Of a stretch of DNA of 64,000 nucleotides, positions 32,515 to 48,350 are shown one piece after another (the first letter of the stretch is position 1; every line of letters starts with the position of its first letter). This stretch comes from Sedimentisphaerales bacterium (GTDB lineage Bacteria; Planctomycetota; Phycisphaerae; Sedimentisphaerales; Anaerobacaceae): positions 1,984,001 to 2,048,000 of the forward strand of contig OY970194.1 in the NCBI GenBank assembly GCA_963708075.1, written 5' to 3'. The position numbers were made by a program, and so were the translations under genes. Under the pieces are notes generated by a model. The model worked only from the letters and a program-made list of their open reading frames with translations. It was not told the DNA's origin and searched no databases.

Positions 32515-35500
32515 TTACGGAACGGTCGCGGGGGCCTTGCCTTGAAGCATGTTCGATATCTCCGACCGTTCGCCGGGGGTGAAGACGTTAGTTTCCTTGT
32601 CGATCTTCAGGGCCTCGTCGAGATACCGCTTCGCCGCTGCCGAGTCGTTGAGCTTGACGCAGATGCGGCCCAGTTGCAGCAGGGGCTTTGCCCGCTGGCG
32701 AGGATCAGCCGAGGGCAGGCCGACGAGTGTCTCGAAGTCGGTCCGGGCGTCAGCCAGCCGGTCCGGCACGTTCGACAGGATGGTGCCCCGTGTATCCAGA
32801 AGATTCCTGTCATTGGGCGCCAGGCGTAAACCTCGATCCGCCAGCTCCAGCGCCTCGGCGTACTGCTGATCGTGTTCCTGAAGAATCCAGGCAAGGTCGT
32901 TGATCGCTCGTATTTCATTCGGGTACCGCTCCAACAACTGGCGATAGACCTTCTGCGCCCTTTCCGCATCTCCCGTCTGGTACAGGCTGGAAGCCAGCCC
33001 GAGGTGTACATCCGGTGACGTGGGTGCAAGCGTGGCCGCGTGCTCGAACAATTTCACGGCCTGTTGTTGGAGGTCTTTCCTGCCGAGCGACAACAGTGTC
33101 GATGCGGCTTTTAGAAGCGTCGCCGGATCCTGCTGTCTGGCCGAGAGATACGCAGAACTGATGTTCGCAAGCTCGTCGAGACGCTTCTGAGACACCAGCC
33201 ACAGGAACCGGGCGTGGACCACGGTCAGATTGCCCCGATCCAGCCGCTCCGCCTGCTCGATCCATTCTCTCGCTCGCTCGGCATCGCCGGCCAGCCGATG
33301 CATGTCGGCGAGCGTCACAAGGGCCCTGACACTGCCGCTGCCTTCCTTCGTTCGGCAATACGCATCCAGAGAGGCAATGGCCATCTGGGGCAATTCGAGG
33401 GCGGCCAGCACGTGCGAACGCTGGATGAGCAGCTCTTCGTTGGCCGGCTCGCGACCCAGCGCGGAGTCAACGAGCGTGCGCGCCTGCTCCAGCACGCTGC
33501 GGTCCCGGCCGATCAACGCACCATCTACGATCACGTTCACAGCTTCCATGTTGCGAGGGTCCTGCGCAAGGGCCTCACTCGCCAATTTCACCGCCATGGG
33601 AATGTACCCAAGGGCAAGCTCCGCTCTGGCCCTGGCCGACAGCAGCGCCGGGTTGTTCGGATTGGAGGCCAATGCCTGCACCGCGAAGTCGCAGGCCGCC
33701 TTGAGTTCTCCCTGTCGCATGGCGATGGCAATGAGCGCAAGGTGAGCATTGACCGCTGCCGGCTCCAGCCGCAGGGCACTCTCCAGTTTCTCTCGAATCG
33801 TCCCCAACGACTGCGGGGCCGGCTCTTTCAGTATCTGCGCCGCACGAACCGCGAGCAGTTCCGTATCCTGCGGCAGTCGTTCTTCCAGTGCCGTAAGGAT
33901 TCCCAGCGCCCTTTCCCGGTCCTGGGCGGTGGCCCGCAGGAATAGCATTTGCATGAGCTTTCGCTTTAGCCGCAGGTCATCAGGATACGCCTTCAAGCCT
34001 TCCTCCATGGCCGTGACGGCCTGGTCCGGCCGCCCGGTACCGCCATAGAAATTGCCCAGCAACTCGTACCCGGCCGGACCGTAGCCGCGAAACGTGGGCA
34101 GCGTTTTGTAGTCTTTCTCCGCACGTGCGAGGTCGCCTTCCTCTGTGAAATGCGTCGCCCGCATCCAGTGGGCATCGAAGTCATTATGATCCTTCACGTA
34201 GTCATCCAGGACGCGCAAGGCTTCCTCTGCCTTGCCTTCCCCTCTCAGGATGGATGCTTTCACCGCCGCCAGCATCCGGGAGTTCGGGTCGATGGCCTCT
34301 GCGTTCTTCAGATATCCAAGGGCCTGGCCGGCGTCCTTTGTTTCCTGGTACACCAGTCGCGCCAACTGGATTCGTGACCCCGCATCCTTGTTGTTGTTGG
34401 AAGCCTGGAGCTTCAACTCGTCGATGGCTCGCGAGTAGTCCCTCGCACCCAGGGCCATTCGGACTTGCCAGGCGCTGGCCAGGCGAGGATTGATCTGCAC
34501 CTGTTTGAGGACGCCTTCGGCATCCGCGAAGCGGCCTTGTCTTTCCAGAAGGGCCAGCAGCTTTTCGGCGATGTCCGCGGCGGAAGGATTCCCGAGCAAC
34601 CCCTTGCGGCACGTATCCTCAACTTTTTTGAAGTCCCCCTGTCTCTCGTACATTCCCGCCAGGACCAGCACGGGCGCCGACCACGCCGGGTCCGCATCGA
34701 TACACTGCTGAAGCAGGTTCGTGATGTCCTGCTGCTTGGCAGACCATGAAGCAGACGCCAGCCAAGACCTCGCCTGGTGAATGCGCCACCAGAGCCCGCT
34801 TTCCCCCTCCGCCTGGCGCAACTCACCGATCAATGCCGCAGTGGCCGCCGGGTCCGCCTGGATCTCGCGGATTCCCAGAAGCAGAGACCGGGCCTGGATT
34901 TCCTGCTTGTCCTGCGACGCCAGTTCCCTCAATAGACCGATCCCCGCCGCACGGTCCCCGTGAACGATCTCCAGCACGGCAAGCCGGATCGACACGGACC
35001 GCTTCTCCGGCCGTCCGGTGATCGTGTTCAGTCCCGACTTGAGGCAACCGCGGGCGGAATCATAATCCGCGTTGGCCACGTGGAGGTCCGACAGGACCAT
35101 CCAGGGCACGGCGGACTCGGCGTGGCGTTTACAGGCCGCCTCGCAGACGCGGATCGCGTCCGCCAGACGTTTCGTCTGGCGATAGTAGCCCGCCAACTGG
35201 ACCTCGGCCCGCAGCGGGTCCTTGCACTCATCGATGGCCAGCTTCAACTGGCTTTCTGCTTCCTCGGGCCGCTCGAGATGAGAGGCCACGATCGCCTGCA
35301 GCATGCGGATATCCACCTGATCCGGATTCGCTCGACGCAAATCCGCCAGTTCCGCTGATATCTTCTGGAGCCCTTCCACGCGCGCCGCATCGCGCTGTGC
35401 CGCCGCCAGATTGATCGCGGCCCCGATGCGAAGCAGTCTAAGGGATAGATCGGTCGAGCCCAGGGATTCCGCCGCGCCGGCGGTGTCAATCGCTTTCTGC

Positions 35501-36969
35501 CAGTCGCCGAGCTTGGCGTACTGCCTTGCCAGCTCGCGCGTCGCCTGCTGGTCCTGCGGGTTCAACCGCTGGTACTGGACGAGGGCTTTCACCGCCCGTC
35601 CCGCCTGGCCCGTCCGATCGTAGGCTTCCGCCAGCAGCCGCCACAATCCTGGGGCGGAGGCGTCGTTACCCATCACCGGTTCCAAGGCCTCGATGACGGC
35701 GTAGGGCCTGTTCTCGGCCCCCGCCACGAGTGCCTGCAGCCCGGCAACTCTCCGCGGCGACTCGGCGGAGCCTTGCTGGGCACGCACAAGATTCAGATAC
35801 TCATCCAGAGACTGCCGTGCCTCAATGACCTTGCCGGCAGCCACGTACAGCGGGATCGCGGCCGGCAGGACCCGGGCCCTGTGGCCTTTATCCGTCAGCG
35901 ATTTGAGCGTCTCATCCGCCAGGGAGGCAGCCTCGGCGGTCGCGCCCTTGCGCGTTGCCAGTTCCGAGGCGAGGAGGAACCTCGCCACGGTCCAGTCACT
36001 GAGATCGAAGAAGTGCTTCTTCAATTCCTCCTGCGGCAGCTTGTCCACCGCCTGCAGTTCGGCGGCCGCCCGGTCCAATTCGCCATGGGCGATCCATTCC
36101 GCACCGAGGACAATGCGGATGCGGGGGTCTTCCGTGCCCTTTGCATCGGCGGACTCAAGGTCCTTGCGGGCCAGTGCCCGCATCGCCGGCTGATCCTGCT
36201 CGCTCGTGGCGGGCATCTCCGCCAACCGGCGCTGGAACTGCGCCCGGCTGACCAGCGCGACGGCAGAGTCCGGCGAATAGTTCACCGCCCTATTGAGCCA
36301 GTCCAGGGGCGTGGGCAGCGAAGTGCCTTCAGTGCCGGCAGGCGTCTGCGCCGGTGGCGAAGCCTCGCTGCTGACGAGCTGACTCATCTGCACGCAGGCG
36401 CGGACGTATTCGACGTATTTCTCGGGACGGGTTTCGAGTCCCCCGATGAAGCTCACAAGGACCTGTCGGGCCTCCGCCGTCTTATTCAACCGGCTCAGCG
36501 CCTCCGCCAGCCACAGCGGGGCCTGGCGATCATTCGGATCGTGCTCCAATCGTTCCCGGGCGATGCCGGCCAATTCGTCGAAATTCCCCACGCCGCCGTA
36601 GAGCATGGCGAGCTTCTCATAGGCGACATCATCATGAGGGACCAGCTCCAGGATCCGGCGATACGCCGAGATCGCCCCGCTCACCGCGGCGGCATCCAGT
36701 GGCCGGACGGACAGGCTGGCCTCCGCATATTTCCGCAGGACCTCGACGTCGTCTGTATTTCGACTGAGGTACTTGCGGTAGTTCTTGGCCGCCGTGGGCC
36801 AGTCCTGGCCTGCCCAGGCGGTCTCCCCCGCCGCCAGAGACTTCTCCGAGAGCATCCCCCTGTGGGTCTGGCGGGCCACCACCAGCGACACCCCGGCAGC
36901 CGCCGTGACCAGGATCAGGATGATCACCAGCTTGACGTTGACCTTCCCACATCGCTTCCTGTACAACAT
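32515..36969 (-). CDS. Giant membrane-anchored tetratricopeptide-repeat protein (PrsT-like, exosortase-system associated)
   Basis: N-terminal TM anchor, many TPR helices, C-terminal A.NDLAWIL...A..LA....P...DTRG typical of PEP-CTERM system TPR proteins; GGAGG SD before ATG 36969. Confidence 0.8.
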   Translation of the reverse strand: MLYRKRCGKVNVKLVIILILVTAAAGVSLVVARQTHRGMLSEKSLAAGETAWAGQDWPTAAKNYRKYLSRNTDDVEVLRKYAEASLSVRPLDAAAVSGAISAYRRILELVPHDDVAYEKLAMLYGGVGNFDELAGIARERLEHDPNDRQAPLWLAEALSRLNKTAEARQVLVSFIGGLETRPEKYVEYVRACVQMSQLVSSEASPPAQTPAGTEGTSLPTPLDWLNRAVNYSPDSAVALVSRAQFQRRLAEMPATSEQDQPAMRALARKDLESADAKGTEDPRIRIVLGAEWIAHGELDRAAAELQAVDKLPQEELKKHFFDLSDWTVARFLLASELATRKGATAEAASLADETLKSLTDKGHRARVLPAAIPLYVAAGKVIEARQSLDEYLNLVRAQQGSAESPRRVAGLQALVAGAENRPYAVIEALEPVMGNDASAPGLWRLLAEAYDRTGQAGRAVKALVQYQRLNPQDQQATRELARQYAKLGDWQKAIDTAGAAESLGSTDLSLRLLRIGAAINLAAAQRDAARVEGLQKISAELADLRRANPDQVDIRMLQAIVASHLERPEEAESQLKLAIDECKDPLRAEVQLAGYYRQTKRLADAIRVCEAACKRHAESAVPWMVLSDLHVANADYDSARGCLKSGLNTITGRPEKRSVSIRLAVLEIVHGDRAAGIGLLRELASQDKQEIQARSLLLGIREIQADPAATAALIGELRQAEGESGLWWRIHQARSWLASASWSAKQQDITNLLQQCIDADPAWSAPVLVLAGMYERQGDFKKVEDTCRKGLLGNPSAADIAEKLLALLERQGRFADAEGVLKQVQINPRLASAWQVRMALGARDYSRAIDELKLQASNNNKDAGSRIQLARLVYQETKDAGQALGYLKNAEAIDPNSRMLAAVKASILRGEGKAEEALRVLDDYVKDHNDFDAHWMRATHFTEEGDLARAEKDYKTLPTFRGYGPAGYELLGNFYGGTGRPDQAVTAMEEGLKAYPDDLRLKRKLMQMLFLRATAQDRERALGILTALEERLPQDTELLAVRAAQILKEPAPQSLGTIREKLESALRLEPAAVNAHLALIAIAMRQGELKAACDFAVQALASNPNNPALLSARARAELALGYIPMAVKLASEALAQDPRNMEAVNVIVDGALIGRDRSVLEQARTLVDSALGREPANEELLIQRSHVLAALELPQMAIASLDAYCRTKEGSGSVRALVTLADMHRLAGDAERAREWIEQAERLDRGNLTVVHARFLWLVSQKRLDELANISSAYLSARQQDPATLLKAASTLLSLGRKDLQQQAVKLFEHAATLAPTSPDVHLGLASSLYQTGDAERAQKVYRQLLERYPNEIRAINDLAWILQEHDQQYAEALELADRGLRLAPNDRNLLDTRGTILSNVPDRLADARTDFETLVGLPSADPRQRAKPLLQLGRICVKLNDSAAAKRYLDEALKIDKETNVFTPGERSEISNMLQGKAPATVP

Positions 36970-37229
36970 TACGCTGTTCCTCCAAATACCCCATCTGCCA
37001 TCTGTTGACGCGCAATGCCACGCGCCCCGGATCGCTGCGCATAACGACATGTGATTGCACCGATCAAGCATCAGTCGCCACCAAATCCAGGAGGTTCGAA
37101 TCCGTTTTGCGAATAGTGTAAGATAGCAGACGGCAAACCGTCAACTCTATTATGAACGCATGGGGTGTGCGGGAATACTCGCTTCCGGATCGCTTCTTTC
37201 GCTCAATCCCCCTGCCGTGAGAATACAAG

Positions 37230-37269
37230 CATGCCGGTGAAGCCCAAGCCGAAGAACTTCACCGGCATG
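37230..37269 (-). terminator. Strong hairpin closing the CTERM gene array
   Basis: Perfect 13-bp inverted repeat CATGCCGGTGAAG / CTTCACCGGCATG with a 14-nt loop, just after the last cargo stop. Confidence 0.65.
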
Positions 37270-37312
37270 TTTTGCGTGATTATCATTCACGTGAGAACCG
37301 ACCACGAGGCTC

Positions 37313-37872
37313 TCACGCAAACCTGCGAAGCTTCCAACCAGCCACCACGAAACCGAGGGCACCAAGCAGTACAGCAGCCGGGAGCGGAACGAACGAGAGA
37401 CCGACAGGGCCGCCATTGCGCGCAGCAAGGCCGAGTTGTCCACTATGGACCAGTTGCTCCCGTTCCAAGTTGCCGTTTCCCAGCCGCTCGCCTCGTAGGC
37501 ACCGCCCTTCCAGTCCCACGTTGTGAGTTCGAACGCAACCACGTCCGTAATGAGCCCCTCGAAATTGAGATGGAAGTCCAGTACGTCGATGTTCTCCGCG
37601 GTGGCAGCGACTGACCCCTCATCACTGCTCTCAATCGTCATGGAGGGGCTTAGATTCGTCAATCCCGGCACCTCCAGAAATCCAGCAGTCATTACGATCT
37701 TCAACCCGTCGAAATTCGCTGCTTCGCCACCCCCGATCTTTGTATCCGTGAGGCTGAATGCCTGATACCAGGAGTTTGATGTGGTCGCTTCCCCCACAGC
37801 CACGAGGTCAGCGACTACTGGGGCCGTTCCAATGACCAGCACAACCAGCACTGAGAGTCCTAGCTTCTTCAT
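37313..37872 (-). CDS. Variant PEP-CTERM (VPLPA-type) sorted surface protein 8, frameshifted near 37397-37424
   Basis: Signal peptide MKKLGLSVLVVLV; sorting tail FVPLPAAVLLGALGFVVAGWKLRRFA lies in another frame (37313-37519); the as-assembled ORF runs to 37150. Confidence 0.8.
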
Positions 37873-38010
37873 ATTTCTCCTTCCATGCCCTATTTGCTGA
37901 GTGTTTCCTTCGTTCTACATCCAGAGTCTTAGCCGCTGATTACCTCCTCCACAACAGATGACGGCGGCCAATGCCTTTCGCAACGATCAGTCACTCGTCA
38001 CCAGAGACAG

Positions 38011-38632
38011 TCACACGAACTTACGCAACTTCAGCCCTGCCGCCAGACCGGCCATAACCAGCATGAACGCCCCGGGCACGGGCACTCGCGGCACCCCGGG
38101 CTGAGTCACCACGGAAACGTTGAACGTGTCCGTGAGACTCGGCGGATCGGCCAAGCCGGTGTTCAGGCGAAGATCGAAGCCGATCTGCGCCAAATCCGCT
38201 GAAGCGAAATTCAACTCCAGCCATGCGGATTGACCAGCCGCGATCACCACCCAGTCAGACGTCAGCTCATTGGCGAACAGGCGAAGCTCCCACGCGCTCT
38301 GGTCGTCGTTTCCCGCGAACACGCGGAAGCCGTCGTAATCCCCGAAGCTGTCTTCCAAGCCGATTCTCATCCAACTCTGATCGCCGCTGAGAACCGCCTA
38401 CAAAACCAACCATCCCCGGCATAATTGCTGGATATTCGACGGCCGGCAGCCAGGGATTCTGATAGACCCATGTGGTGCCATCGAAGACACCCATCAACAG
38501 CCCGGAACTACCGGGGGCCGGGATCTGGCGAAACTCCAGCGCCGTGGCAGAGTCGAGGGTAAACGGACCCGCCGACACCTGCCCGGCCAGTAAACAAACC
38601 ATCACAAATGACAATAGTGAGGCGCGTTTCAT
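38011..38632 (-). CDS. Variant PEP-CTERM surface protein 7, frameshifted at 38389-38395; paralog of 40453-41061
   Basis: Signal peptide; tail VPVPGAFMLVMAGLAAGLKLRKFV; a one-base deletion gives VGGLSGDQSWMRIG, matching paralog VGSLSGNSSWMRIG. Confidence 0.85.
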
Positions 38633-38685
38633 TCCTCCTCCTTCTTTCCATCCCTCGGAAGATCGCGCCCATCCGTGACTCTCTC

Positions 38686-39214
38686 TTATGCGAATTTTCG
38701 CAACTTCAAACCTGCTACCCCGATCCCGAGCGCGCCCAGAAGCGCAGCCGCAGGAACCGGCACAGCATAGATCTTCACAGTCAGAAAGCCCGAGTTGTTG
38801 CCGGGGGCAATATCATAGATGTTGAACGAGAACCGGAGCACCAGTGCCCAGCCAGAGCAGGTTGTAGACATGATCTGGGTTGAAGGTGTCTCCCCAGTTG
38901 ACAAATCCACTGTTGACCTGTAGATCCAGCAGGTTCTCGCCGTAGCTCATGTACCGCTCAACGCCGTTCAGCCAGGCATAGCTGGTCGGACCTGAGGCAT
39001 ACTCGGCATCGGCGTAAATACCATCGTTTGCGTAATACGTGCCGCTCGCCTCGAACCGATACAACTGGCCCACATCGAGAGCTATGGACGTGGCAGTCTC
39101 ACCAGTGCCGAGAACGGTCAACGTGTCAAAAGGCACCAAATCCGCCCTCGCAGGCACAGCACCCAGGCACAAGGCCGCGATACAGACAACCAACAAGAAT
39201 CTCTTCATGGACAT
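38686..39214 (-). CDS. Variant PEP-CTERM surface protein 6, frameshifted at 38828-38834
   Basis: Signal MSMKRFLLVVC..ARA; tail VPVPAAALLGALGIGVAGLKLRKFA; a one-base deletion gives APVSFNIYD. Confidence 0.85.
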
Positions 39215-39347
39215 CGTTTCTCTCCCCTTCCTTAGAAAATGGTAGAATGGCACATCCAGTGCTCGATCAGACCCGATTCTCATCTTCTCAACTGCTCACA
39301 TACTCAACGTGCAGCCGGTGGCGTGAAGCTTCCCACCGATGCCGTAC

Positions 39348-40307
39348 TCACACAAACTTCCGCAACTTCAAACCGGCCACACCCATACCGAGCATACCCA
39401 GCAGAACGGCGGCCGGAAGCGGCACAACTGCACCACCGGCAAGTTCCAGGACCGTGACGCCCCACATACTCATGTTAGCATACGATCCTCCCCAGGTCAT
39501 GCTGTGCAGCCCCGAACTCCAGGTGTCACTAAGAATAACCGTGTTCGACCCATCATAGCCATAGCCAAACATGGAGTGACCCTCCACGTGGATCATCACC
39601 ACCCGGCCTGCATCGATTTCAGCCTTGTAATCGTCGAAAGTGAATCCGCTCGAGGCTACATTGTTCGTCACTTGCGTGTAGATGTCCGCCACTTCGTACC
39701 CGGCGTACTCGACATACTCCTTCACGCCGTACATGCCATCGTTGCCCTGAAGGCCGAAGTATTCAAGAATACCAGGGGTAACCGAAGTGCCGCTGTCGTA
39801 GGCGTAGAACGTGGTGGCTCCATTCACATTGCCTATGCTGTCCTGACTGGTCCCCATGAAGTCGGCCAGACAGTTATAATTGTGAGTTGGAGTAAGGTCG
39901 TCGCCGGAGGCTCCGTAGCCGAAGCCGATACCACCACCGGTGTTATATGCATAAGGATGGCCGGGACCGGCACTGTAGAAATCATACTGGTGCCCGGTAC
40001 TGGCAATCGCTTGATTGACGAGGGCACCCGAATTGCCAAAGGTGCTTGCCTCCGCGACGCCTCCCGGGACAAGGTTGGAATACCCAAGTCCCTCATAGCC
40101 GTTGCGGTCGTAGAACCCCATCATCATCCCGGCAGAGGTTGCCGAGCACCCATACCACCAGTTGTAGCCCGGATTAGGTTCGGGACCGGCCAGAGTGCCG
40201 CCCTGGACGTAATAGGACAGTTCTTCCATGTCCGCCCGCGCCGCTGCAGCGATCAGGCACAAAACCGCCAAACAGAGAACCCGCAACCAGTGTCTTTTCA
40301 TCGCCAT
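39348..40307 (-). CDS. Variant PEP-CTERM surface protein 5 with papain-like cysteine peptidase (C39/C10-like) domain
   Basis: WWYGCSATSAGMMMGFYD (Cys) and GHSMFGYGY..DTW (His/Asp); tail VPLPAAVLLGMLGMGVAGLKLRKFV. Confidence 0.8.
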   Translation of the reverse strand: MAMKRHWLRVLCLAVLCLIAAAARADMEELSYYVQGGTLAGPEPNPGYNWWYGCSATSAGMMMGFYDRNGYEGLGYSNLVPGGVAEASTFGNSGALVNQAIASTGHQYDFYSAGPGHPYAYNTGGGIGFGYGASGDDLTPTHNYNCLADFMGTSQDSIGNVNGATTFYAYDSGTSVTPGILEYFGLQGNDGMYGVKEYVEYAGYEVADIYTQVTNNVASSGFTFDDYKAEIDAGRVVMIHVEGHSMFGYGYDGSNTVILSDTWSSGLHSMTWGGSYANMSMWGVTVLELAGGAVVPLPAAVLLGMLGMGVAGLKLRKFV

Positions 40308-40452
40308 TCCATCCTTTCTCCCAATCTGATCTTCCATAAGCACCCATCCATCAGGCGATCAGGTGGCCGCTGCCGTCACAGCGCCATCGACCGACACCCC
40401 AAACACCCGGGGCCTTTCCAACTACTCCTTCTGCAGCGACCCGATCTGCCTC

Positions 40453-41061
40453 TCACACAAACTTCCGCAACTTCATACCCGCGACACCCAAACCGAGCAT
40501 GCCCAGCAGCACCGCTGCAGGCAGGGGCACGACCGCGGAAATGCTGAACGCATCCGAAACGCTCGGCGCAGGGGTCAAACCGGTGTTCAGACGAACATCG
40601 AAGCCGATCATCGTCAGGTATCCCGAGCTCGTTAGGTCGAACTCCAGCCACCTGAATTCACCGGGCACCAGTGTCTGCCAGCCAGATTCCCCGGCACTCG
40701 TGACCAGCCGAACGTCCCATGCGCTGTTGTCGTCATTGCCCAGCCAGGCACCGAAGCTGTCAGTGGTCCCGGACCCGAAAGTCCCTGTCGCTCCAATTCG
40801 CATCCAGCTCGAATTGCCGCTGAGACTGCCCACAAAACCGACATCGCCCAGCATGCCCGCCGGGTATGCGACGGCCGGCAAATAGGGATTCTGGTACTCC
40901 CACCCGGTGCCATTGAAGACGCCATTCAATAGCCCCGAACTGCCGGTGGCAGTGATCTGAAGAAAATCCAGGGCCGTTGAATAGTCGAGGGTATACAGAC
41001 CGGCAGAGGCCTGCCCGGCAAGCAGACAGACCACCACAACCGATAGTAGAATACGTTTCAT
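40453..41061 (-). CDS. Variant PEP-CTERM surface protein 4
   Basis: Signal peptide; tail VPLPAAVLLGMLGLGVAGMKLRKFV; GGAGG SD. Confidence 0.9.
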   Translation of the reverse strand: MKRILLSVVVVCLLAGQASAGLYTLDYSTALDFLQITATGSSGLLNGVFNGTGWEYQNPYLPAVAYPAGMLGDVGFVGSLSGNSSWMRIGATGTFGSGTTDSFGAWLGNDDNSAWDVRLVTSAGESGWQTLVPGEFRWLEFDLTSSGYLTMIGFDVRLNTGLTPAPSVSDAFSISAVVPLPAAVLLGMLGLGVAGMKLRKFV

Positions 41062-41117
41062 TTCTATTTTTCCTCCGTTTCCATTGTCTCAGACCAACCT
41101 ATCCGATCACGAAACCG

Positions 41118-41936
41118 TTACACGTACTTGCGCAACTTCAGGCCCGCCACGCCGAAACCCAACATCCCCAGCAGAACCGCTGCCGGCACAGGCACGACGT
41201 GAAAGCTATCCGGCCCGCTGCCCAACCCGAATCCGACGTTTCCCAAAGAATAGCCATCCAGAGAGAGGCCGGTAATACCGAACTCGAAGGTGGCCATATC
41301 CCGGACAAGGAGCAGATTGTTCAGGGAACTAGTGGCGGCATCGCCGTGGTAGATCGAGTAGTTGACCCCGTCCACAAGGTTACCGTTGAACTGATTGGCT
41401 GAATCCGTGATCAGATACGTGGTCGTCCCGGGAATGGGCGTATTGTTCCCAATAGTCCCGATACCGAAATTCAGGTACGGAAAGCTCCCGGGGTTTCCAT
41501 CTATGAACGCCCATGACTCCGCCCGGCCCTGCACATTCCCTGGCTCACCGTACACCCGGATGTCAGTGAATGACTGCAGGACATCTGTAGCCGTCTTACG
41601 AGCGAGGTAGACACTCCCCGTAGCATCCTGATACGTCAACGTGGGACGAGTGCCGTCGCTGTTGACGATGTCGAAGTAGAAGCTGCTCAAGACATCATCC
41701 TTACTGTCGCTTGGCACCGGCGAGACGTTGTAAAGACTCACCGTCAGCGTGCTGCCGCTTATCGTAAGGTCGGCCTGGAATTTGACGTCGGTTCCTGATA
41801 GGGACGTACCTTCCCACTCATACAGGGCAGCCTGGGCCGACTGCGCAAGCAGCAAGCAAGCCAAGCACCCAACTAGCAATGTCACAGATCCTTTATTTGT
41901 ACGCGTACTTCTCTTTGATACAGTCATTCTCTGCAC
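41118..41936 (-). CDS. Variant PEP-CTERM surface protein 3
   Basis: Signal ..LLLAQSAQA; Ser/Thr/Gly/Asn-rich beta domain; tail VPVPAAVLLGMLGFGVAGLKLRKYV; start GTG 41936 or ATG 41927. Confidence 0.88.
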   Translation of the reverse strand: MQRMTVSKRSTRTNKGSVTLLVGCLACLLLAQSAQAALYEWEGTSLSGTDVKFQADLTISGSTLTVSLYNVSPVPSDSKDDVLSSFYFDIVNSDGTRPTLTYQDATGSVYLARKTATDVLQSFTDIRVYGEPGNVQGRAESWAFIDGNPGSFPYLNFGIGTIGNNTPIPGTTTYLITDSANQFNGNLVDGVNYSIYHGDAATSSLNNLLLVRDMATFEFGITGLSLDGYSLGNVGFGLGSGPDSFHVVPVPAAVLLGMLGFGVAGLKLRKYV

Positions 41937-42182
41937 CCAATCTCACCGGCCCGTGTCCTAAGCGTCTGGCTCGTTTCCCGACAATCGCATGCACACTCTC
42001 ACGCAATCACCGATTCTCCGGCGGTCCAGACCTGAACCTCGGGTTGCCTTCTATTCAAACGATGGTCTTTCCTTTCAACATCACCTTGCATCCCTTCACT
42101 ACCACACACCAACTGCACCCACCGGCAGATGCTTTTTCACCCGACAATCGCCTGCCTGCCGATCAAGCCCCTTACGAGGCTT

Positions 42183-43052
42183 TCACACAAACCTCCGCAA
42201 CTTCAACCCCGCCGCCCCCAAGCCGAGCATACCCAACAGAACGGCCGCCGGAACAGGGACTATGGCCGCGTCGTGGCTGAACCAGTAGATGCCCGGCTGC
42301 AACGTCAGGGGAGTAGCCAGAGTGTACTTCAGAAAGAAAATGTCATCAGTCACGCTGCCCATGTCGGTGCCGAACACGCGGTCCACGCCGGTGTCGCCCC
42401 AGGTGAAGACGCCCGCGACGTTGTCGGATGAGAAGACGTCGCCGGTGAACGAACCCGTATTGACGGGCAGCAGATCTCCGGCCACATTGGACCAGATATT
42501 CATGCGGTATTGAATCATGGGATCGTCCCGGTTGAAACCGGAGTTCTCGTCAAAGTAGCCAATGATCTGATCGAAGGTGGTCGCCGTCTCAATTTTGAAG
42601 TAGCCGGCATAGATCCAGTCGAAGTTGTTGGACATCGAATAGCCGCGATAGAGTCCCGGCGTATCTCCACTTGCCAAACCCTGGGCGGTAGCGTTGTAGT
42701 AGTTCCCGTACGTCCCATCCTCGATACCATTGTTGTTGTAAACAATGCTGGCCCCACTCTTGAGGGTCAAAGCAAAACCGGCGTTTTGGGTGAACCAGTC
42801 ATCCTTGTGCCATGTGTCTAAGGTGTAAGAGCCCCACCCCGGATCATCCGTTATATAGCGGAACGTCCCACCGGACGCATTGTCTCCGTTGGGGATATTC
42901 CCCGTTGGGAATTGGCCGCCAGTAATAATGTAGTAGTAGCCGTGGCTATCGATCTCGTAATCAGCATGCCCATTGAAGAGCTCCGCGCTCGCCAGAGGGC
43001 TGCACGCAGCCACAAGCAATATGGCCAGCAACCGTATCTTCACGTTCATCAT
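42183..43052 (-). CDS. Variant PEP-CTERM surface protein 2
   Basis: GGAGG SD; signal MMNVKIRLLAILLVAA; tail VPVPAAVLLGMLGLGAAGLKLRRFV. Confidence 0.9.
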   Translation of the reverse strand: MMNVKIRLLAILLVAACSPLASAELFNGHADYEIDSHGYYYIITGGQFPTGNIPNGDNASGGTFRYITDDPGWGSYTLDTWHKDDWFTQNAGFALTLKSGASIVYNNNGIEDGTYGNYYNATAQGLASGDTPGLYRGYSMSNNFDWIYAGYFKIETATTFDQIIGYFDENSGFNRDDPMIQYRMNIWSNVAGDLLPVNTGSFTGDVFSSDNVAGVFTWGDTGVDRVFGTDMGSVTDDIFFLKYTLATPLTLQPGIYWFSHDAAIVPVPAAVLLGMLGLGAAGLKLRRFV

Positions 43053-43117
43053 CCTAAAACCTCCCGCTCGCTCCTCCACGCCCAATAGCACGTGTGAGCA
43101 AGACAGCATTTCTCAAA

Positions 43118-43783
43118 TCACACATGCTTACGCAACTTCACACCGGCGACGCCGAGGCCGAGCATGCCTAGCAGAACAGCAGCGGGGACAGGAACTACGG
43201 CAAAGTCAGTGGTAGCGCTAATCGACAGTCCCGTTCCATTCTCTGTCCAGGTTTCGATATACTGCCAGTTGCCTATATCTTCGAGCCAGAATTGCCCGAC
43301 CCCTGTGACCAGCATGACGAAGCCGCTCTCCTCGGAGAAATCGGTGTCTTCTGCAGCAAGAACACTGTAGGAGGAATTCGGACCGAGATACGTATATACG
43401 CCGGTATAGTGATACGTCATCGCAGGGTCAAGATTGACGCCGCTGCCGGAATAGACAAATACATCTGGGTCATACCAATGCGCCCCATCCCAAACCGTCG
43501 GATTGATGCTGAACTGAGTCATGCTAGGGGAGCCCACTTGGTACAACGGGTCCCCGGCAATGCTGTAATGTGGGATCGTGGGACCCAGCACCAAATTGCC
43601 GTCCACATCGTAGTAGTAACCACCAGCAGGCTGCTCCGGTGTCGGTCCTGTGATCATCACGACATCTCCCGTGGTATCACTCCAATCGGTTCCAAGGATG
43701 GGCGTGGTCTGCCAGCTTAGATCTGCGACGGCGGGCGCTGCCACAAAGGCACACAGTACTGCAACAAGAGTCACGCTTCTCAT
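43118..43783 (-). CDS. Variant PEP-CTERM surface protein 1 (first cargo gene)
   Basis: GGAGG SD at 43793-43797; signal peptide; tail VPVPAAVLLGMLGLGVAGVKLRKHV. Confidence 0.9.
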   Translation of the reverse strand: MRSVTLVAVLCAFVAAPAVADLSWQTTPILGTDWSDTTGDVVMITGPTPEQPAGGYYYDVDGNLVLGPTIPHYSIAGDPLYQVGSPSMTQFSINPTVWDGAHWYDPDVFVYSGSGVNLDPAMTYHYTGVYTYLGPNSSYSVLAAEDTDFSEESGFVMLVTGVGQFWLEDIGNWQYIETWTENGTGLSISATTDFAVVPVPAAVLLGMLGLGVAGVKLRKHV

Positions 43784-43792
43784 CGTCTTTAG

Positions 43793-43925
43793 CCTCCACT
43801 TGGCTTGTTCACATCATGAGTCTTGGATGGCTCGCACTCTTGCATCGCAGTGACAGTAGAGAAAACCTCTGCATCGTCACAGGGTGCGAGCACACGGAGA
43901 GCTACTCATGTGCCAAGTCGGGAGG
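43793..43925 (-). promoter_or_regulatory. Predicted SD-sequestering mRNA stem-loop linking the leader ORF 3' end to the cargo gene 1 RBS
   Basis: Nested complementary blocks: 43793-97/43921-25, 43798-804/43912-18, 43815-21/43904-10, 43830-40/43881-91, 43850-54/43876-80. Confidence 0.7.
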
Positions 43926-44510
43926 TCCACGGGAGGCGAGAACGGCAGGCGTGAATTGCGATTGCCGCCAGAGGGCAACGATGGTCTCCTGGCGGTATGA
44001 TGACGTGATGTCCCCTGCCCTGCACTCCGGCTGAACGAAGCAGACCGGCGCATGGCAGAGGCAATCGGGCGAAATGGCGTGGCTGTGACCGATCTGGACC
44101 GGCCCGCCGTCGTGGTACCACTGTGGGACATGACTGAACGACAATCTCTTGACCAGGGGAACGGACCGGCACATCCCCAGGCCCAGCAAGGCATACAGGC
44201 ACAAGCCGAAGCTGTTCTGCCCATCCGACTGGATCTGCGCGGGGGGCAGTTCACCGGCCCGTCCCATTCCGCCATGCAGATGGGGCAGAGACTCGACAGG
44301 AAGCGAACCGAGACTCGCGATGCTCAGGCAATCCAGCGGATTCGAGAAGTCCATGCCCCGGGGAGCAGTTGCGACAGAGGCGCGCACCGCCTGCTGACAC
44401 CCGGCATCCGGCGAAGACACCGGCCTCATGTCCGCGCGAACGGACGTACCGAGTGCAAGTACCCCGAGAATAATGTAGAGACTCTCACTCCGTTGGATCA
44501 CCACAGACAC
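43902..44510 (-). CDS. Putative leader/monitoring protein with C-terminal RGPP ribosome-arrest-type motif
   Basis: Signal peptide (..LGTSVRA/DM), hydrophobic helix FGLCLYALLGLGMC followed by basic residues, His/Cys-rich linker, ends LASRGPPDLAHE*; AAGGTGGAG SD, start GTG 44510/44504/44501. Confidence 0.7.
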   Translation of the reverse strand: MSVVIQRSESLYIILGVLALGTSVRADMRPVSSPDAGCQQAVRASVATAPRGMDFSNPLDCLSIASLGSLPVESLPHLHGGMGRAGELPPAQIQSDGQNSFGLCLYALLGLGMCRSVPLVKRLSFSHVPQWYHDGGPVQIGHSHAISPDCLCHAPVCFVQPECRAGDITSSYRQETIVALWRQSQFTPAVLASRGPPDLAHE

Positions 44511-44532
44511 TCCACCTTAAAATGCAGCCTCT

Positions 44533-44561
44533 AGTCCACCAGAAATCCCTCCCGGTGTCAA
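44533..44561 (-). promoter_or_regulatory. Candidate sigma70 promoter for the leader-CTERM operon
   Basis: Perfect -35 TTGACA, 17-nt spacer, weak -10 TGGACT, directly upstream of the leader SD. Confidence 0.45.
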
Positions 44562-44929
44562 GGAAAATCCATGAAAAAACCAGGGATTCGGCCCGCCATG
44601 CACCTTTCCGCCGACATCGCTCGTAACTCCTTTATTCACAAGACCTTGCGAGTGACAGTTGGCACCCCCTCCGCCGCAGATCTGGACCGCAAAACAAGAG
44701 AATCCGAAACAAATCCGGACCCAATCCAGATGACGGACACGCCCTTTACTCGCTTGTCCGTCACTACCTGAATTCAGCGTGTGCGTGCGTTTGCGTCTAT
44801 TCCAGCCTGCGAGCTTCGCGTCACACGGGTTCACAATCTCGCAGGACTCGTCTGATGCTTTGCACGTTCCCCCTTTCGTGCATGTTTCGAGTCTCGATAG
44901 GGGGATTTCGAATTCCCCATCATGCCAGG

Positions 44930-45931
44930 TCACGCACAATCGGGCACATCTGAAGAGGATTTCTTGCGGGCCCGGACGACGGATTCCGCCTGGGCACCCG
45001 GCTGTCCCTTGCAGGACTTGGAATCGGGCATGAAGATCCTATCCATCAGCGAAAGCTCGCCGAACAGCAGCATGACGGCGATGGGCATCATGACATACCC
45101 GGCGAAGTCGTGGAAGAACTTCTCGCCTACTTCACTACTGACATGCAGCATGAGGACCGCCGTCACGAAGATCCGCACGATATTGCAGACCACCGCCACC
45201 GGAATGCTCGACGCCAACAGGACAGCTTTCTGCCACCGCGGTCGCTTGACCATATACGCAATGAACGCCGCGACGATAATGAACGCCATCAGCATACGAA
45301 GTCCGCTGCAAGCCTCCGCCACCGCCATTGGCGTACTCTCCCCCAGCATGACAACATTCCCCTGCTGCCCGACCTCAATCCCCACCGCCTCTAAAAGCAC
45401 GACAGACCCCGTCGTCGCCATCCTCTGCAGCGGTCCGGCAATCAGACGATGAGCGACCCCAGGAAGCGGCAACATGAGGAATAGAAACAGCAGAATCCAA
45501 AGGACACGTCGAAACACCTGACGTCCTGCCACCAGGAGAACCAGTCCTGCCGCCGTCAGAACAAGCGAATACCGCTCGGCCGCGGAACGCATGAAAAGGA
45601 ACCCGTAAGTCCGGACCAGTTGCGCCAATACAACCAAGATGGTCCCCCCCCACCAGCACGGCATCAGCGAGCACTGCCGCAGCCCCTTCCATTCACGCCA
45701 CATGAGAAACACGGCAACCAGCGGAACGAGTTGGCCTGCGGAGTAGTCGTCGCTTTTCTGCCACAAACTGAAAAGACCTGCTGCGACCGGCCAATACGAC
45801 CATGCCGTGATTATCGCCAATACCAGCACGAGCGAGAGGAGCCTCGAGGTGCTACCTTGTGAACAAGCTGCACAGATCGCTTGCAGGGTACCTCGCTGGC
45901 GGGTGTGACGGTCGGTCATATTCGGCCTCAT
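44930..45931 (-). CDS. xrt: Exosortase (EpsH family transpeptidase)
   Basis: Multi-TM protein with catalytic triad motifs VAEACSGLR (Cys), NIVRI (Arg), FFHDFAG (His). Confidence 0.93.
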   Translation of the reverse strand: MRPNMTDRHTRQRGTLQAICAACSQGSTSRLLSLVLVLAIITAWSYWPVAAGLFSLWQKSDDYSAGQLVPLVAVFLMWREWKGLRQCSLMPCWWGGTILVVLAQLVRTYGFLFMRSAAERYSLVLTAAGLVLLVAGRQVFRRVLWILLFLFLMLPLPGVAHRLIAGPLQRMATTGSVVLLEAVGIEVGQQGNVVMLGESTPMAVAEACSGLRMLMAFIIVAAFIAYMVKRPRWQKAVLLASSIPVAVVCNIVRIFVTAVLMLHVSSEVGEKFFHDFAGYVMMPIAVMLLFGELSLMDRIFMPDSKSCKGQPGAQAESVVRARKKSSSDVPDCA

Positions 45932-45932
45932 A

Positions 45933-46684
45933 TCACTTCTTTTCAGGTGACTCGCGGAGTGCCCCTGAGCCCTGGTCCTGAATCATGTTGTCGAATAGAC
46001 TGGCTATGGGTACGAAAGAATCGATGGCAAAGTCCCGGAGGATTTCTTCCGCTATATCCTCCCCGGCGGTCCCAACCGGGGTAATGATCTGTATCTCCGC
46101 CGCATAACGCACCGCCGAATGACGACGCCAGACTTTCCACTGCACCGCCGGAATATCGCTGTAGTGGTGCCCATCAACGATGAGGTAGAGTAGAGTCGCT
46201 ATTCTCTCCATACCCAACCTGTTGCGGGCGAACTCAAAGAGGGTGCATGGCCGCATGGTCCCATCGGCTGCAGGCAGCTCTATCAACCGATGGCTGGCGA
46301 GGAGCCACCCGGCTCCTGAGTAGCAGTTCTCGGGGTTGTGGCGCAGCAGTTCACCAGCGTTGACGCCGCATGTGACATATAATGTGATCGCTTCCTGGCC
46401 GTTACGGCGGGAGTACCGACGGCTGACGTGAGAGTCGGAATCGGTCCGCTGCACTATGGCTTCATCCAGCGGAACGTCCTCGCCCACCCAACCGCCAATC
46501 GCCATCGGAAACCGGCCCAGCGCATCGGCGCAATTGGGGCCCCCGTCGCGGAATCAGCAAAATGTGCAGCCAGCGTGCGGTGCGCGAGAGCAAAAGCCAG
46601 CATCACCAGACTAGCTACAATCGCCGCAAGGATCACCGGCCGGAAGTCCGGCTTGTTGCTTTCTGTGGTTCGTTTCGCCTTCAT
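45933..46684 (-). CDS. epsI: Exosortase-associated EpsI family protein, frameshifted near 46526-46544
   Basis: N-terminal TM in 46454-46684; FP.AIGGWVGED, SRRY and HNPENCYSGAGW EpsI motif in 45933-46505; adding one base gives PIAPDALGRFPMAIG. Confidence 0.8.
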
Positions 46685-47467
46685 TTACCTGACAATCTCG
46701 CGGCTGCCCATGAACACCTTCAAGCCCCTGGCGGAGATGGCCTCGGCCAGGACTCTCATGGCGAATCCCGGCAGCACAGACTGCCTCCGCCACCGCCAGG
46801 GCTCACAGACCAGCCGATAAAGGAACTCCGTCCCGGTGCGCTGACAGATTTCCGGGGCCCTCTTGACGCGATCACTGAGGATATCGAAGCTGCCTCCGAC
46901 CCCCATGCAGAACGGCACGTCAATCTTGTCCCAATGCTCGGCAACCCATCTCTCCTGCCGGGGTGACCCCAGTGCGACAAAGAGCATGTGGGCGCCGGAT
47001 GCGTTGATCTGCCTCACGATGTCATTGTCATTCTTGTGGTAGCCGTGAAGTCTTCCGGCAACCTGCAACCGCGGGTACCTTTCACGGAGTCTCTCATAGG
47101 CGGCATCGTTTGTCTCAGGGGTCGCCCCAAACAAGAAAACCCTCATATCCGCATCCTCAGCGGCATTGAGCAGTTCGAAGAACAGCTTCACGCCCGTGAT
47201 TCTCGGTATTCGCCAGCCATTGAGGAACCTGACCGCCGCACAGGTGCCCACGCCGTCACAAATGTGCACGTTTCCTCTGCGCACGATCGATGCAAATGTC
47301 CTGTCACGCCGGCAGAAGCAGACCTTTTCAGGATTGATCGCGATGCAAAAGGTCTTCCTGCCCTCCTGGATCCGACCAAGGATCGTCTGGATGGCATGAT
47401 CATAGGAACGAAAACACGTGATTGGAACACCAAGAACCGCCGTTTGTCTGGCCGTAGGCGCGGTCAT
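46685..47467 (-). CDS. WecB/TagA/CpsF family glycosyltransferase (GT26)
   Basis: INPEK, CDGVG, RITGVKL, FLFGA, HGY, LFVALGSPRQE, MGVGGSFD, KRAP, EFLYRL..EP.R. Confidence 0.93.
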   Translation of the reverse strand: MTAPTARQTAVLGVPITCFRSYDHAIQTILGRIQEGRKTFCIAINPEKVCFCRRDRTFASIVRRGNVHICDGVGTCAAVRFLNGWRIPRITGVKLFFELLNAAEDADMRVFLFGATPETNDAAYERLRERYPRLQVAGRLHGYHKNDNDIVRQINASGAHMLFVALGSPRQERWVAEHWDKIDVPFCMGVGGSFDILSDRVKRAPEICQRTGTEFLYRLVCEPWRWRRQSVLPGFAMRVLAEAISARGLKVFMGSREIVR

Positions 47468-47636
47468 AGAAGATCAACCTCCGTCTGTGCCACCATGCAC
47501 GACCCGTTCATGCTTGTGCCAAGAAGATCCACGGTACCTCTCCAGTGACAGACTACTCTTTGGTGACGGCTATGCCTGAGATGAGCACTGTGCTGAGGAG
47601 ATTATCGACACTTTGGAATACCTAAGTCTGACATTT

Positions 47637-48350
47637 TCAGAACGCCGTGGCACGCTCTATGGCATTCTGGAATTCCCGATATCCGATACTCATGTGCGAC
47701 AGTACCCTTTCTATTGCCGTTTCGGAGACATCTCCCTCCGTCCTTAACCTGTCCAGGGCATCCTCACGGCTTATCTGGCCATCGCGTATAAGGCAGCTGA
47801 GATTGTCGTCCGTGTCGTTGAATCCCAATATCCTTCTGTATATATAGGACTTCAGCATGGCAATGCTACAGTCCCCCCTCCAACTCGCATTCCGCTCAGG
47901 GTTGGACTCCCACCCGAATTCCCTGGCGATCGTAGATACAATATCGCTCTCCATCCAATGCACGTGCAAATAGAAGGGTGCTAATCGCAGGATGCCATGT
48001 TTCCTGAACAACCGCTTGTTGGTCTTGCAGTAGTAGAATTCTCTCACCTGCGTACATAAGCAAGTGGGGTTCACAATCCAGCGCGGATTCCTCAGTAGTC
48101 GAAGTGCGTACCCCAACACAATTGAATGCGGTTTACCTCCCACGCGATACCTTTTCATCAAGCCCGTCTTGTAGGCACCGCCCTCAAATGGAGTACTGCC
48201 AACAACAACTACAGGGATCTTGTTCGACAGACAGGCGTCCAGAAGCCCTTTCCACATCCCAAGTCGACATCCCGTACATAGCAGTGTTACGGAAGCAGCC
48301 GAGGGTTTGCACATCCATGCCGAAAGGTATCGATGCAGGTACTTGCGGTA
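47637..48350 (-). pseudogene. 5'-truncated N-acetyl-sugar amidotransferase/PP-loop-like protein (C-terminal half)
   Basis: LCTGCR, W.E..I...I..E.GW, SWRGDC, LIRDGQISREDAL match the C-terminal half of LPS/EPS amidotransferase-like proteins; no N-terminal SGGxDS PP-loop; frame stays open upstream of ATG 48314 without a start. Confidence 0.55.

Follow-up and report, generated by a model that had tools for sequence, protein, structure and literature searches.

How the supply of PEP-CTERM surface proteins is matched to exosortase and exopolysaccharide capacity is poorly understood, and the control that is known is transcriptional. A short gene in a 64,000-nucleotide (nt) stretch of a Sedimentisphaerales genome (contig OY970194.1, positions 1,984,001 to 2,048,000; the whole stretch is called the window here) raises the question whether control can also be exerted by a nascent chain. 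The gene, referred to as the leader, lies directly upstream of eight PEP-CTERM cargo genes, and its product ends in RGPP and five further residues. A preliminary description of the DNA had put it forward as a ribosome-arrest leader. Does the leader arrest its own translation, and how would such an arrest reach the cargo genes? Comparison of the leader with its homologues indicates that it is probably an arrest leader of the RAPP/RGPP type, at which the stalled ribosome would unmask the ribosome-binding site of the first cargo gene. The stall, the membrane topology and the sensed event are what we infer; what the comparison of sequences brings out is the motif and its position, the gene order, a co-varying masking helix on the mRNA, a codon bias at the first proline of the motif and the avoidance of RGPP in this genome.

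The leader and its C-terminal RGPP

The leader open reading frame (ORF) carries the elements on which the preliminary description was built, namely a stretch ending in VRA/DM, a second hydrophobic stretch with basic residues, and RGPP at residues 194-197, five residues from the stop. The eight CTERM cargo genes named there are also present, as are the cargo signal peptides ending in ARA/DM (in 39348-40343) and ARA/DL (in 38813-39295). A leader start two codons inside the listed ORF, at 44504 (200 residues), is more likely, because GGAG sits 5 nt 5' of this second GTG and the 200-residue database entry P0001 fits it. The N-terminal hydrophobic core comprises residues 10-24, the VRA/DM at the end of the stretch is the likely cleavage site, and A26 is kept in at least 90% of family members.

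A word-indexed search with the leader returned 227 homologues at E <= 0.01, most of them of 190-205 residues, none with a Pfam domain or an informative name. A profile search over 1.84 billion representatives gave 887 clusters (50% identity) at E <= 1e-3; 798 of these reach E <= 1e-10 and 318 reach E <= 1e-30. The expectation that a C-terminal RGPP or RAPP would be kept among homologues was borne out: among 265 distinct proteins from the database, 255 have R-x-PP in their C-terminal 20 residues, and it is the most conserved feature of the family. RGPP accounts for 192 of these proteins, RAPP for 55, RPPP for 6 and RSPP for 2. The tail after the motif is 0-19 residues long across the family with a mode of 3, exactly three residues being found in 126 of the 255. 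Among the ten exceptions, one protein stops before the motif, two have unrelated ends and two carry RGPP with a longer tail; the other five have substitutions in the core, which are weighed below.

R194, P196 and P197 do not vary in an alignment of 35 sequences with 42-80% identity. When 113 sequences with identity down to 20% were aligned, only W131, P137, P196 and P197 were invariant, R194 being kept in at least 90%. Among the loci that were fetched, R[GAS]PP is present in 78 of 82 distinct profile-matching ORFs. Counted among these 78 are six of seven loci at which the tblastn match stopped short of residue 165, so that the motif played no part in the retrieval of those seven. Codons vary freely and synonymously at the Arg (CGC, CGA, CGG, CGT) and at the Gly/Ala of the motif, a sign that selection acts on the peptide. 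By analogy with ApdA/ApdP (PMC10951233), Pro196 would occupy the P site and Pro197 the A site at the predicted stall.

Tetrapeptide frequencies were determined in 3,288 long non-overlapping ORFs of this genome. Of the 12,365 tetrapeptides for which 30 or more occurrences are expected, RGPP is depleted most strongly (7 observed versus 35.5 expected; observed/expected 0.20), and RAPP ranks tenth (12 versus 40; 0.30). This avoidance agrees with a published survey, in which RAPP and RGPP are described as the strongest arrest cores, refractory to elongation factor P (EF-P) and excluded from bacterial proteomes, those of Planctomycetota included (Fujiwara et al. 2025, PMC12992588). As a separate observation, the 15 most depleted tetrapeptides of this genome also include RAPL, RAPT, PRAP and DRAP.

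The leader gave no family match in Pfam (E <= 0.1) or NCBIfam, and a PDB sequence search with the family profile and PADLOC gave zero matches. AlphaFold2 (AF2) with the 113-sequence alignment predicted no globular fold (mean predicted local distance difference test score, pLDDT, 57.4; predicted template modelling score, pTM, 0.25), the only confident regions being the two hydrophobic helices. In a protein-language-model atlas the nearest Pfam-bearing clusters were LpqS (0.83), DUF2946 (0.82) and SecM (0.82), all below the reliable level, and the nearness to the SecM and DUF2946 clusters is a weak lead.

Predicted pairing between the putative arrest site and the Shine-Dalgarno sequence of the cargo gene

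The Shine-Dalgarno (SD) sequence of cargo gene 1, GGAGG, lies 9 nt upstream of its ATG. Pairing of the arrest site with the SD region was compared at 62 loci in which the cargo start could be set with confidence, using a 33-nt segment at the arrest site and the SD region of the same locus. The matched duplexes had a mean of -16.4 kcal/mol versus -13.1 +/- 0.37 for permuted partners, and 0 of 20,000 permutations were as stable. The matched duplex ranked within the best 5% at 14 of the 62 loci and within the best 20% at 31. When the 33-nt segment was slid along, a single trough of -16.7 was obtained, starting at the Arg codon, with values of about -10.8 elsewhere.

The two strands of the helix differ in sequence by lineage (ACAUGUCA/UGACAUGU, CUGUUCUUGC/AAGAACAG and GUGGUUG/CAACCAC). 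In a 17-sequence alignment 80.8% of cells are paired, versus 32-41% when the partner strand is slid, and changes on both sides are seen in 10 of 20 pairs, a number equalled in 0 of 500 shuffles. RNAalifold on a MAFFT alignment returned a small intergenic hairpin only, and the masking helix was specified by hand for the pair test. No Rfam family matched positions 39000-48000 at E <= 1.

Codon choice at the motif points in the same direction as the pairing. The first Pro codon is CCT (CCU in the mRNA) in 59 of 77 genes, whereas only 16% of 1,293 other Pro codons in these genes are of this kind; with CCU in this position the transcript therefore carries the anti-SD sequence CCUCC. The effect of a stalled ribosome was modelled by holding its footprint open. 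The mean probability that SD and start codon are unpaired rose from 0.32 to 0.44, versus 0.34 with a control footprint in mid-spacer, and in the window it rose from 0.16 to 0.49, versus 0.16 with the control. The effect of the footprint on SD opening is thus specific but moderate. The opening of the downstream ribosome-binding site, which the preliminary description had proposed, is backed at the level of sequence by this co-varying helix between the Pro-Pro and tail codons and the SD.

A different structure was seen in the spacer of a subgroup of loci. The small, conserved hairpin GGAUUGAG...CUCAAUC occurs in L022, L026, L028 and 13 further loci (alignment A4, columns 98-125); of its 6 pairs, 5 show compensatory changes, and 91.8% of cells are paired. 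The hairpin of the window is a different, longer one.

Gene order at the leader loci

The position of the leader upstream of CTERM genes, suggested from the window, recurs across the family. A co-directional PEP-CTERM ORF starts at most 300 nt after the leader in 64 of the 69 members with at least 1 kb of downstream sequence; with naive ORF starts the gap has a median of 98 nt, and in the window it measures 118 nt. At four of the five remaining loci (L062, L070, L083 and L086) a downstream start with a signal-peptide-like N-terminus is predicted; the fifth case (L042, 9442) is not as clear. The first cargo genes differ widely: clustering the mature parts of 66 of them yields many groups, of which the biggest has 13 members, and the leader is therefore tied to the class of PEP-CTERM cargo and not to one protein. 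At some loci the module is repeated in the order leader, cargo(n), leader, cargo(n).

The same genome contains a second copy of the leader (C1:4607213-4607806), which is 69% identical and ends in RGPPGMS. Its module (G000:C1:4606479-4607806; locus L088 9480-10861, minus strand) consists of the leader, about 95 nt and a single PEP-CTERM gene, and no exosortase was found near this copy in locus L088. At the family level, a same-strand exosortase homologue lies at most 2.5 kb upstream of the leader in 27 of the 51 members with at least 2.5 kb of upstream sequence (median gap 426 nt), and at such loci EpsI usually precedes the exosortase. Of the eight genomes of the genus in which the exosortase of the window has a counterpart of at least 60% identity, seven also have the leader. 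Six leader-positive genomes (eight if two weak matches are counted) showed no such exosortase at this cut-off, in assemblies of 74-97% completeness. The genome of the window has three exosortase homologues (C1:2028930, 1683791, 1730830), and a regular-expression search on naive ORFs gave about 101 ORFs ending in a PEP-CTERM-like signal. Several cargo genes of the VP[VL]P type are scattered elsewhere without a leader, and the leader would therefore control only part of the cargo repertoire.

All 72 family loci recovered from species-representative genomes carry Planctomycetota titles, mostly Phycisphaerae or Sedimentisphaerales and some Pirellulales or Planctomycetales. Among the sampled genomes, 15 of 23 from this genus and 0 of 17 others from the order gave a family member; a phylum-wide sample of 400 other genomes, with at most seven candidates scored per listed genome, gave no match at E <= 1e-5.

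Table 1. Features of the leader locus, in coordinates of the window
Feature	Position	Strand	Basis
Leader gene, 202 codons counting from the first GTG	43902..44510	-	ORF list
Predicted signal peptide, residues 1-27	44430..44510	-	Inferred from hydropathy, AF2 helix at residues 8-27, conservation
Internal hydrophobic helix with basic residues, residues 100-122 (SFGLCLYALLGLGMCRSVPLVKR)	44145..44213	-	Hydropathy, AF2, alignments
PxWYHxGGPxQxGH motif, residues 129-142	44085..44126	-	113-sequence alignment
RGPP codons CGT GGA CCT CCC, residues 194-197, predicted stall site	43920..43931	-	Conservation
Five tail codons (DLAHE) and TAG stop	43902..43919	-	ORF list
5' strand of the putative masking helix, CCUCCCGACUUGGC, Pro-Pro and first tail codons	43912..43925	-	Fold, cross-locus pairing
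Leader-cargo intergenic region, 118 nt, with long internal hairpin	43784..43901	-	Fold
3' strand of the putative masking helix, GCCAAGUGGAGG, with SD GGAGG (43793-43797)	43793..43804	-	Fold
Cargo gene 1, 221 residues, signal peptide ending AVA/DL, VPVP-type PEP-CTERM end	43118..43783	-	ORF list, profiles
Seven further PEP-CTERM cargo genes	37313..43109	-	Profiles and C-termini
Intact genes among these	42183-43109, 41118-41936 (XDD4 family), 40453-41061, 39348-40343	-	Profile matches
Split distal cargo pairs	38813-39295 with 38686-38946; 38267-38812 with 38011-38397; 37150-37914 with 37313-37618	-	
Exosortase (EpsH family), 333 residues, 420 nt upstream of the leader	44930..45931	-	PF09721, E = 3e-60
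EpsI (DUF3485), two reading frames in the assembly	45933..46684	-	Profiles

In the window, eight C-termini of the type VP[VL]P...KLRKF follow the leader on the same strand between 43783 and 37313 (Table 1). Three of the eight cargo genes, all distal, are split by a frameshift, with the signal-peptide half and the PEP-CTERM half in different frames. EpsI is likewise divided: its N-terminal ~55 residues with a transmembrane segment are in ORF 46454-46684 and the rest in ORF 45933-46505, and both parts align to one 245-residue homologue (locus L036). The EpsI split is either a real frameshift or an assembly indel. The several split genes, together with a completeness of 92.8% for a one-contig genome, suggest assembly indel errors rather than gene decay for EpsI and the cargo genes.

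The surroundings are those of a polysaccharide/exosortase locus, with a WecG glycosyltransferase and a row of glycosyltransferase and acetyltransferase genes of about 16 kb upstream of the exosortase. Directly after the cargo array lies a tetratricopeptide repeat protein of about 1,500 residues (32515-37071, minus strand), whose best match is the XrtA/PEP-CTERM system protein PrsT with 214 bits, against a cut-off of 312. A 140-codon ORF in the gap between exosortase and leader (44517-44939) was considered as a gene and rejected, since tblastx gave no conserved ORF and blastn only two short matches. A scan of 40000-46000 for promoters and terminators found none above shuffled expectation, and the window has 28 matches to the sigma-54 consensus versus 31.6 expected. 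One sigma-54-like -24/-12 element with a single mismatch, TGGCAC-N5-TAGCT, lies over the leader stop (43900-43915, minus strand); it was found in 3 of 77 homologous segments, two of which are one locus fetched twice, and is probably due to chance.

The internal helix and the PxWYHxGGPxQxGH block

Two parts of the leader other than RGPP are held constant in the family. The second hydrophobic stretch, SFGLCLYALLGLGMC, covers residues 100-114 and is followed by R115, K121 and R122; the 113-sequence alignment confirms that this helix is conserved among homologues. Its Kyte-Doolittle 15-residue mean is 1.81, somewhat below the 2.17-2.31 of the C-terminal anchors of the local cargo. Residues 100-122 are probably a stop-transfer anchor. 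PxWYHxGGPxQxGH is the most conserved block besides RxPP. In the 113 sequences W131 and P137 are invariant, and P129, Y132, H133, G135, G136, Q139, G141 and H142 are kept in at least 90%. The distance from the W to the Pro in the P site is 61-68 residues in all 278 measurable proteins, and 65 or 66 in 244 of them. This spacing is constant even in distant members in which the intervening sequence is not conserved. During arrest the block would have left the exit tunnel by ~25-35 residues, and ~80-95 residues would separate the helix from the peptidyl-transferase centre. The block may provide an exterior contact that reinforces arrest, a kind of contact that has been studied for SecM and MifM; it may instead help to release the arrest, or be a docking site for a membrane partner.

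The preliminary description had taken the leader, with its CTERM-like helix, for a mimic of the cargo, and this part of it found no support. By eye, distant members have the look of a classical PEP-CTERM signal, with LPPAPSS or LPPLPGS before the helix and Arg/Lys after it; the subfamily of the window has TDGQNS in this place and no PxP. The internal helices of 19 leaders matched no PEP-CTERM model of Pfam (E <= 1) or NCBIfam (E <= 10), and none of 82 leaders reached 8 bits with a profile made from 150 tails of local cargo. Smith-Waterman scores of the leader helix with the cargo tail of its own locus showed no co-variation (22.97 matched versus 23.49 +/- 0.43 permuted). Composition-shuffled leader segments scored 17.9 against cargo tails, below the real helix, which indicates a modest generic likeness. 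The extreme C-terminal location of a PEP-CTERM sorting domain is also not seen, since ~80 residues follow residues 100-122. The likeness to the PEP-CTERM signal, as far as it can be judged from sequence, is thus a loose one that appears generic and possibly ancestral, not that of a tuned mimic. A prediction of a complex between the exosortase (alignment A3) and leader residues 92-165, run without controls, scored 0.00.

Proposed mechanism

The signal peptide would send the nascent leader to the Sec translocon, and the variable N-terminal part of ~70 residues would be exported. The glycine-rich helix with its basic flank (residues 100-122) would then stop transfer and anchor the chain in the membrane, giving a topology in which the signal peptide is cleaved, the N-terminus is out and the C-terminus is in. 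About 75 more residues would be translated before the ribosome stalls. On free mRNA the Pro-Pro codons (CCUCC) and a few tail codons would pair with the SD of cargo 1 and its 5' flank, ~100 nt downstream. A ribosome held at RGPP would cover the anti-SD strand, and the SD would be freed for cargo translation to start. Once the stall is released, termination would follow a few codons on and the masking helix would re-form. As for the event that is sensed, a speculative candidate is the engagement of the membrane helix and of the fixed-distance PxWYHxGGPxQxGH by exosortase or EpsI, which would set the duration of the stall.

Several points weigh against this scheme. Core substitutions (QAPP, CGPP twice, RASP and HAPP) are found in 5 of 265 members. 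The whole intergenic fold of the window is barely more stable than its shuffles (z = -1.84), and the p-like figures for co-variation overstate independence, because the structure was taken from the very sequences on which it was tested and these loci are related. In thermodynamic terms the opening is moderate: the gain in the probability of being unpaired exceeds 0.2 in only 17 of 62 loci, and 6 of the 26 loci with a well-masked SD open to more than 0.5. The regulatory logic is unclear, the downstream genes being cargo and not machinery. A force-distance rule for pulling on the nascent chain was reportedly laid down by Ismail et al. in 2012. Release by helix insertion in the manner of SecM or MifM is not obvious for the leader, because its helix is ~80 residues from the stall and the insertion force would be spent beforehand.

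The moderate opening of the SD would be accounted for if the read-out were of the Rho type, as in CruR, with arrest acting by anti-termination and SD unmasking absent or secondary. Such a read-out has a precedent, and the untranslated gap of ~100 nt after the leader (the naive median of 98 nt) would give Rho room to load. A pure Rho switch, however, predicts neither that the co-varying partner of the helix is specifically the SD region nor that the first Pro codon is biased towards CCU, which makes the anti-SD sequence. We consider the Rho read-out unlikely as the explanation in place of unmasking; the two may act together.

The distance between helix and stall bears on a further possibility, that the stall serves to tether the polycistronic mRNA to the membrane, so that cargo is made beside the translocon and exosortase, and reports no variable condition. 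XBP1u is an analogue for tethering of an mRNA to the membrane through a stalled nascent chain. A signal peptide and a stop-transfer helix ahead of a long spacer would anchor a stalled ribosome, and 80 residues are too many for insertion of the helix itself to release the arrest. The presence of two leaders, with VPxP cargo scattered elsewhere, fits a local rather than a global role. RGPP arrest is also particularly robust and is not relieved by EF-P (PMC12992588). Tethering leaves the fixed-distance PxWYHxGGPxQxGH and the masking helix unexplained, and as the whole function of the leader it seems improbable; it is compatible with unmasking of the SD and does not exclude it.

That the leader is an ordinary membrane protein working within the exosortase system, for instance as an accessory or a scaffold, with RGPP serving for binding or processing and the mRNA helix for an unrelated fine-tuning of translation, would suit its length of ~200 residues (long for a leader), the conservation of residues 100-197, which is stronger than usual outside the core of arrest peptides, and the adjoining EpsI and exosortase genes in 27 of 51 loci, but is very improbable given that no fold is predicted despite a deep alignment, that no Pfam, NCBIfam or PDB relatives were found, that RGPP is the tetrapeptide avoided most in this genome, that the motif is fixed a few codons before the stop where the same codons form the anti-SD strand, and that the paralogue has a single cargo gene and no exosortase nearby.

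Relation to known arrest leaders

The leader with its arrest-and-unmasking scheme can be set beside the arrest peptides described so far. RAPP or RGPP near the C-terminus of proteins of fewer than 300 residues with localisation signals has been surveyed by Fujiwara et al. (EMBO J 2025, PMC12992588). The leader has the R-[A/G]-P-P core near the C-terminus of a protein of this size, a predicted localisation signal at its N-terminus and, a short distance downstream, a gene in the same direction; by computation and comparison, it also has a putative SD-masking mRNA structure that a ribosome at the arrest site would open. The main text of that survey names as downstream classes TonB receptors, YcnI, PCu(A)C, PepSY, DsbA/thioredoxin and sec genes, which extend beyond protein localisation.

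Closest in their C-terminal R-A/G-P-P near the stop are ApdA, ApdP and the 'RQH' upstream ORFs (uORFs) that precede secA/secDF (Sakiyama 2021; Fujiwara 2024, PMC10987492; Morici 2024, PMC10951233), which share with the leader an N-terminal localisation signal and a co-directional downstream gene. For uDF_RQH_Enterobacterales/secDF2 an intergenic secondary structure has been drawn, and RGPP members arrest translation in vitro (PMC10987492). The leader differs in having no sequence homology to these proteins (no Pfam or PDB match) and in what lies downstream, which is PEP-CTERM cargo in place of Sec or YidC machinery. It further has a second, internal helix predicted to lie in the membrane and a conserved motif 61-68 residues from the putative stall site, and it is longer (~200 residues).

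SecM of E. coli has a signal peptide and the RxxP-related core RAGP, and its stalled ribosome exposes a downstream SD (PMC10987492). No profile match was obtained between the leader and the SecM family PF06558 (Pfam, E <= 0.1). SecM monitors the machinery that it regulates, SecA, whereas the leader has the exosortase upstream and cargo downstream. The leader-cargo layout is that of secM-secA, uDF_RQH secDF2 and cutF-cutO. CutF of Rhodobacter capsulatus (DUF2946; PMC9973294, bioRxiv 10.1101/2025.02.05.636593) is an exported nascent-chain sensor whose regulated gene lies outside the export machinery. It senses periplasmic copper through a Cu-binding motif, while the leader family has no Cys kept in at least 90% of the 113 sequences, and the downstream functions of the two differ. 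CruR of Bordetella pertussis (DUF2946; PMC9426467) is a uORF protein whose C-terminal RAPP arrest controls downstream operon genes. Its read-out is Rho-dependent termination and it responds to copper through CXXC, whereas the conserved RNA feature of the leader is the predicted SD-masking helix. The leader also gave no match to the DUF2946/CruR/CutF profile PF11162. Since the regulated genes are cargo and not localisation machinery, the strict monitoring logic of SecM, MifM and VemP, which the preliminary description had adopted, does not apply, and CutF and CruR are the closer models.

The novelty claimed in the preliminary description holds in part. Literature searches found no link of arrest peptides to exosortase or PEP-CTERM, only transcriptional or descriptive work. 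PrsK/PrsR is said, after Haft 2006, to exert transcriptional control of PEP-CTERM. A transcriptional control of the PEP-CTERM system is also described in a paper on RpoN (PMC9850573). Neither 'PEP-CTERM' nor 'exosortase' appears in the main text or the searchable supplements of PMC12992588, the source lists of its Fig. 4 and Appendix S2 lying outside this scope. The general principle, on the other hand, was published in 2025 in that same survey.

Implications

With 887 clusters at 50% identity, the leader family is a sizeable unannotated protein family that deserves a name. The leader is also a clean test system, in which an invariant putative stall core, a co-varying masking helix open to disruption and repair, and a motif at a fixed distance outside the tunnel are combined. 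If the proposed mechanism is true, it would add a translational layer of control, exerted by a nascent chain, to PEP-CTERM systems, and it would bring arrest leaders of the RAPP/RGPP type into a new pathway and into a phylum from which no characterised example is known. On the speculative reading in which exosortase or EpsI also sets the length of the stall, the leader would be the first sensor of the nascent-chain kind in a sortase-like pathway of surface attachment. The capacity that the exosortase has to spare, or the state of its acceptor, would in that case be converted directly into the synthesis of PEP-CTERM cargo, and substrates would thus be placed under feed-forward control, as against the feedback control of machinery by SecM.

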